Position numbers and translations under genes: made by a program. Positions 22,875 through 27,580 of a stretch of 64,000 nt of DNA are shown piece by piece. The notes below the pieces were generated by a model that saw only the letters and a program-made list of their open reading frames with translations, ran no database searches and was not told the origin of the DNA. The stretch lies in the IMG/VR virus record IMGVR_UViG_2920693923_000001, positions 1 to 64,000 of that record, one strand, 5' to 3'. This stretch comes from a virus. Lineage: Duplodnaviria > Caudoviricetes. Position 1 is the first letter of the stretch, and every line of letters starts with the position of its first letter.

Positions 22875-22920
22875 CATACTTTTTTATTTTTATTTTTTAT
22901 ACTTTGTTTGAGGAAGTATA

Positions 22921-22949
22921 TTGACTTAAATAAATAAATTAGATACAAT
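22921..22949 (+). promoter_or_regulatory. Sigma70-type promoter for ORF 22990..23340
   Basis: TTGACT-17 nt-TACAAT. Confidence 0.7.
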
Positions 22950-22989
22950 TAATACAATATATTAAAAAACTTTTAATGGGGAGGTATTT

Positions 22990-23340
22990 ATGTTGACGAA
23001 TAAAATTATTAATGATTTAATAGAACTTGAAATATATCAATCTAAGTCATTAAGTAAAGAAGAATATGAAAAATTGTCAAATAATAAAAATAACAATAAA
23101 ATATATTTATCTGGCAGTTATAGCAATGATCCAGATAACGAATTTACAAAATATTATAAAGAAATTAATACTAATGGATTAACGATAGAAGAAATTGAAT
23201 TACAATTATCAATTGAAAGAACAAAAAATATCAAGTTAATAAAAAATATGATTATATTTTTTGTTATACTTACAGTTATTTCATTTATCTGTTTATTCTT
23301 CTTTTGGTCTTCAATATCAAACACATTAAATGATTTATAA
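22990..23340 (+). CDS. Small membrane-anchored protein (intron cargo)
   Basis: 116 aa, GGAGG RBS, single C-terminal transmembrane helix (MIIFFVILTVISFICLFFFW), very AT-rich. Confidence 0.75.
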   Translation: MLTNKIINDLIELEIYQSKSLSKEEYEKLSNNKNNNKIYLSGSYSNDPDNEFTKYYKEINTNGLTIEEIELQLSIERTKNIKLIKNMIIFFVILTVISFICLFFFWSSISNTLNDL

Positions 23341-23381
23341 AACCGCCCAGGATTTTATTGATTCCGTAAATCCAAATAGAA

Positions 23382-23410
23382 GAGAGTAGTGAGAAATTGC
23401 TACTCTTTTT
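23382..23410. terminator. Probable bidirectional terminator
   Basis: agagtagt-loop-gctactct hairpin with T-rich tails on both strands, between convergent units. Confidence 0.6.
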
Positions 23411-23419
23411 ATTTGTATA

Positions 23420-23595
23420 CAAAAATAATACAGAGCCATAAAATATGACTCTGTATTACCTCTTGTGTTAAACGCATGTTAAAAACAATTGTTTAAATTC
23501 CTCCTGATGTCACATATCTATCAGCTAATGGACACCCATTTCTGTTTGATATGGTACAAGTCAAGGCTAATGGACACCCATTTCCTTGTTTGTAA
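23420..23595 (-). ncRNA. DUF3800-associated small RNA with two repeat hairpins
   Basis: Own consensus promoter at 23601-23629, two identical 19-nt units (23524-23542, 23566-23584), terminator hairpin at 23427-23458, no ORF. Confidence 0.65.
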
Positions 23596-23600
23596 GGAGT

Positions 23601-23629
23601 ATTATATCAAATAATAAACTTGTTGTCAA
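23601..23629 (-). promoter_or_regulatory. Consensus sigma70 promoter immediately after the DUF3800 stop
   Basis: TTGACA-17 nt-TATAAT on the minus strand. Confidence 0.85.
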
Positions 23630-23631
23630 TA

Positions 23632-24438: not shown

Positions 24439-24518
24439 ATAGATATATTTCCAGTAATATTGTATAATAAACTATATATTTTACAATTCACAAAATCAGC
24501 AGGAGAGGAGAGTACCAT

Positions 24519-25262
24519 ATGACGAAAAATTACAAATTACATTACCACCCAAACTTAAACTTAGAAAAAGAAACAACTATTGAATTAAAATCAGTAGAAG
24601 AAGTGAGAATATGTCCTCATTGCGGCATAGCTACAAGCCCTACATTTATTGATGGATATCTTATTGGGGATAACAATAGCTATATACCACCAACCACTTA
24701 TATAATATTTCATTGCCCAAGTTGCAACAAACTATATATCGCAAAATATTACATACCACATGACTACTATATAACAAACGACATGATGCCATATGATTTT
24801 TCGCCCATATTCCCATCATGCACATATCCAGGAAAACACATATTACCAGAATTCACTGAAAATATAAAACAATTGTCACCTATGTTTGTAGAAACATATA
24901 GACAAGCTTGCTATGCAGAAGAAAATGAAGACACAATTGGGTTAGCTGGGTTAGGTTATAGAAAAGCAATTGAATTCTTAATCAAAGATTATCTTATTAA
25001 GGTAGATCCAGATAATAAGGATAAAATTATTAAAATGCAACTAGGAAAGTGCATTGATAAATTAGATGAAGATATTCAAGATATCGCAAAAGCGGCTACG
25101 TGGTTAGGTAATGATGAAGTTCATTATTTTAAGAAACATAGCGATTATGGTATTGATGACATGAAAGACTTTATACAATGTTTGGTAACAGATATAGAAA
25201 GATATTATGTTAAATTGAAAGCAAGAGAGTTCGTCAATGCGAATGATAATGCTACAAAATAA
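24519..25262 (+). CDS. DUF4145 (HEPN-like) protein with N-terminal Zn ribbon (intron cargo)
   Basis: CPHC...CPSC followed by 'YRQA...LAGLGYRKAIEFLIKDY...LGKCI...WLGNDEVHY'. Confidence 0.8.
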   Translation: MTKNYKLHYHPNLNLEKETTIELKSVEEVRICPHCGIATSPTFIDGYLIGDNNSYIPPTTYIIFHCPSCNKLYIAKYYIPHDYYITNDMMPYDFSPIFPSCTYPGKHILPEFTENIKQLSPMFVETYRQACYAEENEDTIGLAGLGYRKAIEFLIKDYLIKVDPDNKDKIIKMQLGKCIDKLDEDIQDIAKAATWLGNDEVHYFKKHSDYGIDDMKDFIQCLVTDIERYYVKLKAREFVNANDNATK

Positions 25263-25299
25263 CATTGGATACAATTATTACTACACAATAAAAGACACC

Positions 25300-25767
25300 T
25301 TAGTTGGTGTCTTTGTTTGTATTTAACATATCGATTATTCCGTCTATATCCGGTGTCATAAAATGTTTATTACCAGATTCACATTGTTTTAAATATTCCT
25401 GACAAGATTGTATTATAGCTGATTCGTTATCGTCAATTATTTTCTTTACCAATATATCAAATGATTCACTTATCAAATAAGATTGTACATACATGTCATC
25501 AATTGGAAACAATTTAATATAATGTATTCCATGCGAATGATGAGGTTTTGTTTTTGGGTTTGGTGGTAATGAAAAATATTGATCTTTTGGCGTTTTGGGT
25601 GATATATTTGAACGAAGAGGTACAACAAACTTATGATATTGTTCCTTATACTTCAATTTTACAATTAAAACACTTGGACGACCACCTTCGTTAAACATAA
25701 GTTCCTTATGCACGTTGTTTTTCTTACATTTATTGAAAAATTCATTAGATATTTTAACTAACCTCAT
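25300..25767 (-). CDS. Type III toxin-antitoxin endoribonuclease toxin (TenpN/ToxN-like)
   Basis: 'LMFNEGGRPSVLIVKL...FVVPLRSNI...GIHYIKLFPI' toxin motifs, preceded by a terminator and tandem RNA repeats, the canonical type III TA layout. Confidence 0.8.
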   Translation of the reverse strand: MRLVKISNEFFNKCKKNNVHKELMFNEGGRPSVLIVKLKYKEQYHKFVVPLRSNISPKTPKDQYFSLPPNPKTKPHHSHGIHYIKLFPIDDMYVQSYLISESFDILVKKIIDDNESAIIQSCQEYLKQCESGNKHFMTPDIDGIIDMLNTNKDTN

Positions 25768-25782
25768 CTTTTGCTCCTATAA

Positions 25783-25808
25783 AGAAAGAGCCATCTCTGG
25801 CTCTTTCT
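25783..25808 (-). terminator. Terminator between antitoxin repeats and toxin gene
   Basis: agaaagagcca/tggctctttct inverted repeat. Confidence 0.8.
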
Positions 25809-25810
25809 AA

Positions 25811-25955
25811 CTTACAATTGGATAATATTCTAATTTTACATCCCGTTATCCACGGAGATATACTTACAATTGAATGATATTCTAAATTTAAGTCCCGTCA
25901 TTCACGGAGACAAACATACAATTGAGTAATATTCTTGCCGTTACTCACGACTTAC
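25811..25955 (-). ncRNA. Type III antitoxin RNA, about 2.8 repeats of 52 nt with pseudoknot
   Basis: Units start at 25811, 25863 and 25915; each has a ccgu/acgg-type stem whose loop pairs downstream, with compensatory changes between units. Confidence 0.8.
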
Positions 25956-26046
25956 TAGAGATCATCTCTGATTTCTTACTTATATTATATATTGTAACAC
26001 ATAAAAAATGTCACCAAAACAAGAGAAAATTTTTGTGCAAAATTAC

Positions 26047-27042
26047 CTAGTTCAATTCTTTGACAATAGCTCTCCAATACTGGAATCTTCCATCGACATT
26101 TTCAGCACTTGTAGTTCCTGATTGAACAAAGAGCTTATATTCCTCGTTCTCATCATAAGTATTTAAGAACTCTGTAATCTGATCTATCAACGCACTAAAT
26201 GACTTCTTGTTCTTTGTAACCTTATAACAAGCGTACAATATCTGTGGAAAAGAAGTGACTGGTATTGATATTTTATCGTATGCAGTATCAAGCTTATCCA
26301 TAGCTTCTTCAAGTGTATCTTTTACGTCAAGATACTCATCAGCATAATTCATAACAAAATTATCTATATCTTTAGCACGAAATGAAGTAAATTGATGTTC
26401 CTGATTTGTTGCAATAAGCATGATAGTCTGAATTATGATGTCTCGATCAGTACCACTTTTGCGTTGAGCAGGAGTCATTAATTTATTCATCACTGGATGA
26501 TTCGTAAGAGAATACACCATGTCACTAAAATCATCTGATTCCTTGCATACTCTAAGAAGTTTAGCACTTAATTTCTTTCCACTATTTTGACGCTCAAACA
26601 TCATTTTAATTTCATCATCAGTATAATCACTTAACATACAAAAATCCAATGTAGCAGATCTTAATGTTTCTTGAACATCTTCATCCAAAGCAGAGAATCT
26701 TTTCTTGGCAAGCTCAAATTCCTTCTCAACCTTCTCCCCATTCTCTACGACCGTAAGCTTAATATTGGGCGTATATTTGTTGAGAGCAAAATCATTATGC
26801 AGAAACTGAATACATGTTGACACACGTTGAGATCCATCTAATGTATACATCACATTATTCTCTTCTACAAGATAAATTGGATTAACAGGAATTCCTGTAA
26901 GCAAACTATGGATCAATAGACTTTTCATCGGAGAGTTCCACTGATCGACAGGTCGTTGTAACTTATGAGAAAAGGAAATATTATTCTTAGAATACTGATT
27001 ACTAATCCATGACAAGGTTCTTGGTTTTGTTGTGTTTTTCAT
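26047..27042 (-). CDS. DUF262 (GmrS-like ParB/Srx) domain protein (intron cargo)
   Basis: 'LQRPVDQW...LLIHSLLTGIPVNPIYL...LDGSQRVST...MFERQNSGKKLS' DUF262 motifs; probable start 27042 after a GGAGG RBS. Confidence 0.85.
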   Translation of the reverse strand: MKNTTKPRTLSWISNQYSKNNISFSHKLQRPVDQWNSPMKSLLIHSLLTGIPVNPIYLVEENNVMYTLDGSQRVSTCIQFLHNDFALNKYTPNIKLTVVENGEKVEKEFELAKKRFSALDEDVQETLRSATLDFCMLSDYTDDEIKMMFERQNSGKKLSAKLLRVCKESDDFSDMVYSLTNHPVMNKLMTPAQRKSGTDRDIIIQTIMLIATNQEHQFTSFRAKDIDNFVMNYADEYLDVKDTLEEAMDKLDTAYDKISIPVTSFPQILYACYKVTKNKKSFSALIDQITEFLNTYDENEEYKLFVQSGTTSAENVDGRFQYWRAIVKELN

Positions 27043-27580
27043 TTTTATTGCCTCCATAAAATGTTTATTTTCTAAAATAATAACATATTTGAAAGCAAAT
27101 GTCTGTGTCATTAATGATACAATTTTCGATTTTTTATTTAACATATAAGAAATCGAGATTTACTTGGTTTCGTTCCATCTTATCTACCTCTAGGAACTGA
27201 GAGGTCAAACTGATTTACACGAGGTATGAGATAAGTTCATATCATTTAACATGTCGTGCCATGAGTACGGAATGCATATTATAGTAGCATCGTTTCATAT
27301 AGCTACTACCAACGGTTGTCACTCTCTGAGGGCTTACCATTTTAAAGGTCTATCCCTGCGAACCAACTGAATTCATGAATTTTTACTGTGCCTATTTAGT
27401 TTCCTTATAATAGGGTAGTACCATGAGTTTTACAGCCTTCCTCGCATATTGCGTCTTCGTTTATCGTATGTATAGCATACTTATCATAGTCCAAACTATC
27501 GTATCCGATAGAAACCCTATGATGTCGGTACGTTCAAAACAATAACAATGATTTGATTAATACGCCACTAACGTATCAAT

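Follow-up and report, generated by a model that had tools for sequence, protein, structure and literature searches.

We report a tape measure gene of a tailed virus (Duplodnaviria; Caudoviricetes) that appears to be interrupted by an intron loaded with accessory genes. The window, meaning the whole stretch of DNA that was analysed, comprises 64,000 nucleotides (positions 1 to 64,000 of IMG/VR virus record IMGVR_UViG_2920693923_000001), and the element in question, which we call intron 2, lies on its minus strand between the second and third exons of the gene. Comparison with related loci makes it likely that intron 2 is a group I-type ribozyme, built like the IStrons discussed below and bearing cargo, that is spliced out of a single tape measure gene; the feature is real, and very probably of group I type and spliced. 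The gene is present as three open reading frame (ORF) pieces on the minus strand (29888-32530, 27557-28270 and 16677-22877), which would form one gene of ~3,145 codons split by two introns. Among the gene neighbours in related phages are YomU, YomV, YomW and YomN domains, and the related phages were therefore assigned as SPbeta-like.

Both ends of intron 2 had been proposed in an earlier note made from the letters alone, and each of the features it named could be found again. Exon 2 ends with GGC (Gly) at 27583-27581 and the intron starts right after ...FKNVG. A string that had been described as a mirror of the spliced junction is present as well: in reverse complement, 27542-27522 reads as the last bases of exon 2 and then the first bases of exon 3, and it corresponds to an internal guide sequence (IGS) adjoined by a P10 guide. 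The suggested P9.0 pairing is available between GUACU (27268-27264) and AGUAU (22880-22876), followed by G22875. Exon 3 from 22874 is in frame, so that splicing would restore KNVG-TFKQ as claimed, and the intron, put at ~4.7 kb, measures 4,706 nt. The predicted ligated junction reads ...AAUGUCGGC joined to ACAUUCAAA.... In the window, P1 pairs the IGS with the end of exon 2 over 7 bp and has a C.A at the splice site (exon UGUCGGC / intron ACCGACA), and P10 is paired at 8 of 9 positions. An in-frame stop codon occurs 7 codons into the intron; such early stops have been described in phage group I introns (PMC2504315). Among homologous exon-2 ORFs, 118 of 120 terminate no more than 57 residues past K-N-V-G. 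Their tails vary with the intron variant, as expected if reading continued into different introns.

The earlier note had also called for a comparison of related phages. In that comparison the core was conserved and covarying, the guides tracked the exons, and the cargo was variable. A motif scan recovered six sequence variants (A, B1, B2, D, E and F) of a 420-470 nt element, all directly after ...AAAAAUGUCGG[C/U], and contigs encoding homologous proteins supplied others that are more divergent and occupy the same codon (L107, L108, L110, L111, L112 and L113). The same architecture and covariation were present in at least 12 further sequence-distinct introns at this codon, and this recurrence exceeds chance. 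The L022-type intron, in which P1 and P10 could not be resolved by eye, was omitted.

P1 covaries with the 5′ exon through four states: exon GUCGG[U/C] with guide [G/A]CCGAC, GUUGGU with GCCAAC, AUCGGU with GCCGAU, and CAAGGGU with GCCCUUG. A U.G pair at the splice site was observed in variants B1, B2 and F and in the L107, L108, L111 and L112 types, in which the exon ends in U; in variant D the exon also ends in U, yet the guide has C opposite the splice site. P10 is fully paired in L008 (UUUUGAAUAU with AUAUUCAAGA, 10/10), in L112 (ACCCAAUAU with AUAUUGGGU, 10/10) and in the L012 type, where all 12 positions match across 3.5 kb and a 9-nt spacer precedes the IGS. At the other end, the intron closes with ...UAGUA[U/C]G in 13 loci despite unrelated upstream cargo. 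In L111 the intron ends in GUUUG and the core carries CAAAC in place of GUACU, which shows that P9.0 covaries as well. Three features of group I introns were thus found here: a 5′ exon end paired with an internal guide, a guide next to the IGS that pairs with the start of the 3′ exon, and P9.0 with a terminal G, a G preceding exon 3 in 17 of 17 loci examined.

The fold of the core was assessed on alignment A1, which holds 13 sequences of the six variants aligned with MAFFT. We tested a hand-drawn layout of P1, P2, P2a, P2.1, P3, P4, P5, P5a, P6, P6a, P7 (as a pseudoknot), P8, P9.1 and P9.1a, and found 87.0% of cells paired, compared with 26.9-43.7% when the 3′ partners were slid. Two-sided pair changes numbered 32 versus 4-10 in the slid controls, and the covariation score of 0.318 (versus at most 0.097) was reached by none of 500 shuffles. 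RNAalifold on the same alignment returned 48 pairs, 25 of them with a compensatory change. These pairing figures are conservative because in P4, P7 and P8 MAFFT places variants B and F one base off. Compensatory change in at least 32 core pairs points to selection on the fold. A shift-tolerant helix test was dropped as support for P3 and P4 because it is too permissive for helices of 4-5 bp (24-51% full pairing in controls).

P4, P5, P6, P7 and P8 follow one another in the canonical order with compensatory changes. P7 is GAGUG/CAUUC in variant A, GACUG/CAGUC in E, G(U)AAUG/CAUUC in B1 and F, and G(U)AGCG/CGCUC in B2. The R-like and S-like motifs named in the earlier note were both located, and their forms CUCAGAGA(G/C)UGACA and AAUAU(G/A)CA(U/G)UCC contain the compensatory P7 change between A and E, variant E having CUCAGAGACUGACA as its R-like and AAUAUACAGUCC as its S-like motif. 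Variant B2 has Q-like AAUCCGCAGGG and P-like UUUGCGGGAA. Together the P-, Q-, R- and S-like motifs resemble the classical elements reported by Cech in 1988 and by Michel and Westhof in 1990, and their order is canonical. A group II intron was considered for a GUGCG motif in L022 and rejected: no end resembling domains V/VI is present, and the motif is absent from the window.

The 3′ end of the intron carries a further conserved feature. A hairpin with a 6-bp stem and the 9-nt loop CCUCAAACA stands ~25 nt upstream of the 3′ splice site, and in every relative examined a hairpin is found 25-45 nt before that site. The stems have unrelated sequences and are always paired; the loop is conserved and reads NYUCAAACA. 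Its complement GUUUGA, in the internal loop of P9.1, is invariant in variants A, B1, D and F. Most loci have core GUUUGA and loop UCAAAC. In L057 the two are GUUUAA and UUAAAC, in L108 they are GUGGAU and AUCCAC, L110 has a core and loop of the same class as L108, and L008, L034 and L089 show G.U-compatible differences. We read this pairing of hairpin loop and core as a tether that would bring the far 3′ end to the core. The evidence was restricted to this position-specific pair. Counting all complementary 6-mers shared by the intron tail and the core did not separate cognate from control sequences in this AT-rich DNA, and the count was discarded.

A consistent scheme for splicing can be drawn from these elements. 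The first ~420 nt would contain the whole catalytic fold, P1-P9.1; cargo occupies the next 4.3 kb, and the 3′ splice site would lie at the far end. During late transcription the polymerase would read through the cargo. P1 would set the 5′ splice site, and the remote 3′ end would be drawn to the core by three short pairings, namely the docking contact (UCAAAC at 22911-22906 with GUUUGA at 27210-27205, loop to internal loop), P9.0 and P10. G22875 would then enter the G site and the exons would be ligated in frame. One run, made up of contigs and only presumed to be RNA (share 0.06), contained DNA or RNA fragments of related phages and no joint of exon 2 to exon 3; it is given no weight for or against splicing.

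Several observations weigh against this scheme. The 5′ splice site of the window has a C.A instead of the usual U.G, a C as final exon base being a rare exception that is already known (PMC4227781). The window P10 contains one mismatch, and overall cognate P10 guides do little better than non-cognate ones (8.25 vs 7.18 of 10), an advantage that is small because exon 3 starts mostly alike. P3 is only 4-5 bp long, no convincing P3 is seen in variants B2 and F, and short helices pair by chance once shifts are allowed. The covariation of the docking pair amounts to few independent events. Terminator-like hairpins occur on the sense strand of the intron at 25314-25291 and ~23470-23436; the intron also holds two antisense genes, which together with the terminators should hinder a 4.7-kb precursor, so that read-through or assembly in trans would be needed. 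Contiguous KNVG-TFK was found in no related locus examined, and when IMG/VR was scanned for the ligated junction as predicted, the single match was a chance hit in unrelated DNA. L001 and L002, which have ACG in place of the exon-3 ATG, possess an in-frame ATG 12 codons upstream of the junction, without a Shine-Dalgarno sequence. Finally, Rfam model RF00028 was unmatched in the window and in 10 related loci, both at the gathering score and at E<=10. The cmscan queries were the window, 22000-33000, 27100-27650 alone and the 10 related loci, and the covariance-model search over the core that the earlier note had proposed turned out negative. The same model finds an ordinary group I intron between two structural genes at L112:2850-3236 (69.5 bits), which indicates that it works in this phage group and that the group carries several kinds of group I intron. 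Because P3 is weak and RF00028 is unmatched, we assign the core to group I type with high but less than full confidence.

The terminators and antisense genes bear on whether intron 2 would be spliced as one molecule. They would fit a bipartite system in which the transcript ends at a cargo terminator, exon 3 and the 3′ hairpin are transcribed from a promoter near 23000-23060, and the two RNAs are joined via the docking pair, P9.0 and P10 and then ligated. A ribozyme in two pieces would need just such a loop-to-core pairing beside its 3′ splice site, and weak promoter-like sites are present on the minus strand at 23058-23012. These matches, however, are weak (9/12) and within chance (46 vs 37 in shuffles). 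In addition, short introns of 649-1,305 nt share the same end architecture and need no assembly in trans, and IStrons splice as one unit over ~2 kb (PMC4227781). We consider trans-splicing improbable.

Slightly less credit still is due to a dead or dispensable intron. Two polypeptides would then be made, one from exons 1 and 2 that ends ...NVGIDTLVAY and one from exon 3 that starts at ATG 22877, and the island would simply lie between genes. In the window this in-frame ATG is indeed exactly at the start of exon 3, the 118 upstream ORFs that end here fit the two-gene annotation of most records, and Rfam provides no match. However, the ATG lacks a ribosome-binding site, as the earlier note had stated: no Shine-Dalgarno sequence precedes it, only an A/T run, unlike the cargo genes in the window, which have GGAGG. 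In 4 of 13 relatives (L030, L034, L057 and L089) ACG replaces it, no in-frame ATG, GTG or TTG lies upstream, and the next in-frame start candidates are 18 to 375 nt downstream. A dead intron would also leave the compensatory core pairs and the tracking of both exons by the guides unaccounted for. Furthermore, unbroken homologues exist: more distant relatives (L024, with 3,627 aa, L025, L026, P0009 and P0088) have tape measure genes that run uninterrupted across the site, and P0009 matches exon 2 (66% identity) with exon 3 farther along in the correct order. The L025 gene (L025:9434-18886) contains 46 TAG codons in frame but neither TAA nor TGA; this phage is therefore TAG-recoded and reads TAG as an amino acid. 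An exon 3 protein search in five other records found nothing, as exon 3 is too divergent. In the GenBank phage collection, neither the region nor the core had a close or remote DNA match, and the N-terminus of exon 3 was unmatched at the protein level.

That the 420-nt RNA is some other structured element, such as a regulatory leader or processing signal with a convergent likeness to group I, is highly improbable: the poorly supported P3 and the want of a covariance-model match to any Rfam family speak for it, and it leaves unexplained why a single contiguous segment pairs with both exon ends, why the terminal G and in-frame junction occur in all variants, and why the P/Q/R/S-like motifs are in canonical order.

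Table 1. Positions of the tape measure exons, the two intervening sequences, and the predicted ribozyme and cargo elements in the window
Feature	Position	Strand	Basis or remark
Tape measure exon 1	29888..32530	-	PhageMin_Tail profile positions 4-123 at residues 745-858 (Pfam)
Intervening sequence 1 (ends approximate)	28271..29950	-	Splits PhageMin_Tail between profile positions 123 and 127
HNH homing endonuclease gene, intron 1	28296-29339	-	phrog_559, 1e-58
Tape measure exon 2 (5′ end approximate), ends ...FSFKNVG	27581..28243	-	PhageMin_Tail profile positions 127-194 (Pfam)
Whole intron 2, 4,706 nt	22875..27580	-	5′ splice site by P1; 3′ splice site by P10, P9.0 and terminal G
P10 guide	27542-27530	-	Pairs with ACAUUCAAA of exon 3
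Internal guide sequence	27529-27522	-	Pairs with AUGUCGG(C) of exon 2
Ribozyme body	27179..27521	-	Alignment A1, six variants
P2	27521-27485	-	
P2.1	27480-27466	-	
P-like motif	27446-27436	-	
P5	27427-27372	-	
Q-like motif	27362-27354	-	
R-like motif	27330-27314	-	
P8	27308-27282	-	
S-like motif	27280-27269	-	
P9.0, 5′ strand	27268-27264	-	
P9	27263-27250	-	
P9.1	27235-27179	-	
Core docking motif GUUUGA, P9.1 internal loop	27205..27210	-	Complementary to 3′ hairpin loop
Cargo 1, DUF262/GmrSD_N protein	26047..27042	-	Pfam 5e-13; phrog_2598
Cargo 2, type III toxin-antitoxin-like module	25300..25935	-	Tandem repeat and 155-aa ORF
Cargo 3, DUF4145/phrog_1305 protein, antisense	24519..25262	+	phrog_1305 3e-42; Pfam 5e-4 (below cut-off)
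Cargo 4, DUF3800 protein	23632..24360	-	Pfam 4e-11
Small RNA gene directly behind DUF3800 gene	23436..23629	-	Promoter 23629-23601; hairpin and U-run ~23470-23436
Cargo 5, 116-aa membrane protein, antisense, adjoins 3′ splice site	22990..23340	+	ORF, hydrophobic C-terminus
3′ docking hairpin, 6-bp stem, 9-nt loop	22899..22919	-	UCAAAC at 22911-22906
P9.0 3′ strand AGUAU and terminal G (22875)	22875..22880	-	Conserved as AGUA[U/C]G ahead of exon 3 (13 loci)
Tape measure exon 3, 2,065 codons from ACA	16677..22874	-	ORF; begins T/I/A-F-K in all relatives

The five genes that the earlier note had counted on both strands are all present between the core and the 3′ splice site (Table 1). In PADLOC, the DUF262 protein matched NsnA (7e-32) and PD-T4-2_A (2e-10). 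The toxin-antitoxin-like module consists of a 52-nt tandem repeat in 2.4 copies (25809-25935) upstream of the 155-aa ORF (25300-25767), whose Atlas (language-model) features reach 0.96 to ToxN/AbiQ/TenpIN clusters; this ORF had no sequence match in Pfam, PADLOC or PDB, and BLAST did not relate it to the ToxN of L008, which Pfam confirms. The small RNA gene has a promoter matching TTGACA-17-TATAAT at 12 of 12 positions with a TG extension, belongs to no Rfam family, and contains two copies of the 18-nt repeat AAAUGGGUGUCCAUUAGC, 41 nt apart. The membrane protein is conserved in L001-L005. No homing endonuclease was found hidden in the cargo of the window or of the relatives. The cargo genes would form independent transcription units on both strands, with their own promoters and terminators, and are probably expressed from the prophage.

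Across 15 loci the cargo spans 2.3-6.1 kb and comprises ~49 gene clusters; its length was also put at 0.2 to 5.8 kb. Genes on the sense strand are mostly 5′, and those next to the 3′ splice site are mostly antisense. The introns found at this codon measure 649 nt (L112), 956 nt, 1,305 nt and up to 6,273 nt, a graded series from nearly empty to loaded. Families among the relatives include ToxN (1e-34), PemK/MazF, NYN, DUF6173 and zinc-ribbon proteins; an IS21 insertion, two 6A RNAs and a skipping-rope RNA also occur. Most cargo has no family and no PADLOC match. Apart from the IS21 element in L002, no transposase was detected in the window cargo or in 30 representative cargo proteins of relatives. 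The earlier proposal that the intron is a landing pad for defence genes is thus largely supported as to the landing pad, and a defence identity applies to part of the cargo only: NsnA-like DUF262 and the putative type III toxin-antitoxin module in the window, and ToxN, MazF and NYN in relatives.

Individual relatives add some detail. The element at L002:6359-8685 is a secondary IS21-family insertion (IstA with rve and Mu-transposase C domains, and IstB) that lengthens the intron to 6.5 kb and leaves its ends untouched. L001 carries two tandem 6A RNA motifs at 6942-7042 (RF02925, 56 and 51 bits) directly upstream of a 166-aa ORF without known family (L001:7059-7556). Since the same slot holds type III toxin-antitoxin modules in other relatives, 6A RNA may be a repeat-type antitoxin RNA. 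A skipping-rope RNA (RF02924, 76 bits) lies within the intron cargo at L006:14351-14431. The gene adjoining the 3′ splice site is very often an antisense one for a zinc-ribbon protein of 150-180 aa, even in the shortest introns (for example L022:11090-11620, L108:16213-16740, L110:11913-12443 and L035:7138-7671).

Loci with differing flanking cargo share stretches of 30-90 nt at 84-100% identity, found in the window at 25956-26046, 25285-25317, 24369-24435 and 23383-23413. These linkers, which are conserved while the cargo genes around them differ, fall on promoters and bidirectional terminators and are likely recombination points, or cassette junctions. The intron itself also appears to move. 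A segment of ~464 nt, from ~30 nt before the end of exon 2, is 99.8% identical in L001, L002, L004, L006 and L007. In exon 2 protein, L001, L002 and L004 share no more than 38-52% identity with the window, whose allele is found in L006 and L007. Near-identity of the core beside such divergent exons argues for horizontal spread between phages. We counted 1,957 homologues in this gut-phage family at E up to 1e-10.

Phages would probably swap cargo with one another by recombining at the conserved intron ends and the promoter/terminator linkers. Going further, the ribozyme and its co-evolving docking hairpin might constitute a dedicated 'cassette holder' inside an essential virion gene, a suggestion that we offer tentatively and to which we give somewhat less than an even chance. 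The tether of ~6 bp would allow the intron to expand from 0.65 kb to over 6 kb; autonomous and even antisense defence or toxin-antitoxin genes would be safe there from loss by imprecise deletion; and the cargo would spread with the intron among SPbeta-like gut phages. In a bolder form of the suggestion, internal terminators would cut the precursor and the halves would be ligated in trans.

The closest known systems are the IStrons CdISt1 and BcISt1 (Tourasse, Stabell and Kolsto 2014, PMC4227781). According to that paper, they carry a 5′ group I ribozyme with genes behind P9, occur without a homing endonuclease in Firmicutes including Clostridium phages, and are spliced out so that insertion is harmless. 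A 5′ ribozyme, 3′ cargo and a 3′ splice site kilobases downstream are common to both. IStrons carry a single IS200/IS605 or IS607 element (1.8-2.6 kb in all) and are found at many sites, whereas intron 2 and its relatives hold 3-7 unrelated accessory genes on both strands, variable between phages and fixed at one codon. No IS200/IS605 or IS607 transposon lies behind the ribozyme of intron 2. Nor does it show the IA2 fold with P7.1 and P7.2 given there for IStrons, having ~11 nt between the P7 5′ strand and P8, and the parts of PMC4227781 consulted describe no counterpart of the docking hairpin. Group I introns of up to ~20 kb with other genes inside are also mentioned there, in organelles. They resemble intron 2 in holding protein and RNA genes over many kilobases; in that account they differ in belonging to eukaryotic organelles and in having cargo other than defence or toxin-antitoxin genes.

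Tape measure genes are known sites of group I introns, in Bacillus cereus-group prophages (TMP-IVS1, 2, 3a and 3b; Tourasse and Kolsto 2008, PMC2504315) and in Cluster J mycobacteriophages (PMC3706429). As proposed for intron 2, the Bacillus introns self-splice in frame from the tape measure gene of temperate Firmicutes phages, and they too contain early stops; different introns fit the same site via P1/P10, and most lack a complete homing endonuclease. The Bacillus and mycobacteriophage introns are of ordinary size and hold no more than a homing endonuclease in a loop, and neither a multi-gene island nor a remote 3′ splice site is described for any of them.

Moron and defence hotspots likewise hold variable, self-contained cassettes with their own promoters and terminators in a fixed place, recombining through shared linkers. 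They sit between conserved genes, whereas the hotspot in intron 2 would lie inside an essential virion gene and be harmless through splicing. A remote 3′ end has a reported parallel in the nrdD (sunY) intron of phage T4, for which Michel et al. in 1992 reportedly spoke of a 'remote 3′ splice junction': the core is said to lie 5′ with an ORF downstream, and a distant 3′ segment with P9.0 and P10 is said to be needed to complete the active fold. The distance there is reportedly below 1 kb, with one sense-strand endonuclease gene as cargo, and we know of no loop-to-core docking pair in it like that of intron 2.

The earlier note had been aware of no described system of this kind. Its claim stands for the type of cargo, a full-text literature search having found no paper that describes such cargo in a phage intron, and falls for the layout, which has precedents in IStrons and in the published tape measure introns. 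What differs here is the kind and variability of the cargo, its presence on both strands, its fixation at one codon, the lack of a transposase or endonuclease and of P7.1/P7.2, and the docking pair.

The first intervening sequence of the gene is, by comparison with related loci, an ordinary intron: it splits PhageMin_Tail, holds an HNH gene, and fills a gap of 1.65 kb between the exon 1 and exon 2 pieces that is missing in L001 and L004, where these exons are contiguous. The exon 1 ORF extends ~20 codons into it. The HNH protein has 347 aa with several zinc-ribbon repeats, and an additional 58-aa ORF is found at 29344-29520. Intron 1 (28271-29950) had no Rfam match. Elsewhere in the window, four tRNA genes lie on the minus strand (52990-53062, 53610-53683, 54887-54960 and 62942-63015).

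For annotation, the tape measure gene of this gut-phage family is routinely called as two to three genes, and the island looks intergenic. If intron 2 is spliced as proposed, a self-splicing intron would serve as a general site for storing and exchanging accessory genes within an indispensable gene. Phages would thereby have a new way of carrying and trading toxin-antitoxin, defence-like and small RNA genes, and the known cargo of phage group I introns would extend beyond a homing endonuclease to islands of several genes on both strands. It would also provide a natural case of a ribozyme finding its splice site kilobases away via a docking pair, which would be of interest for RNA engineering.

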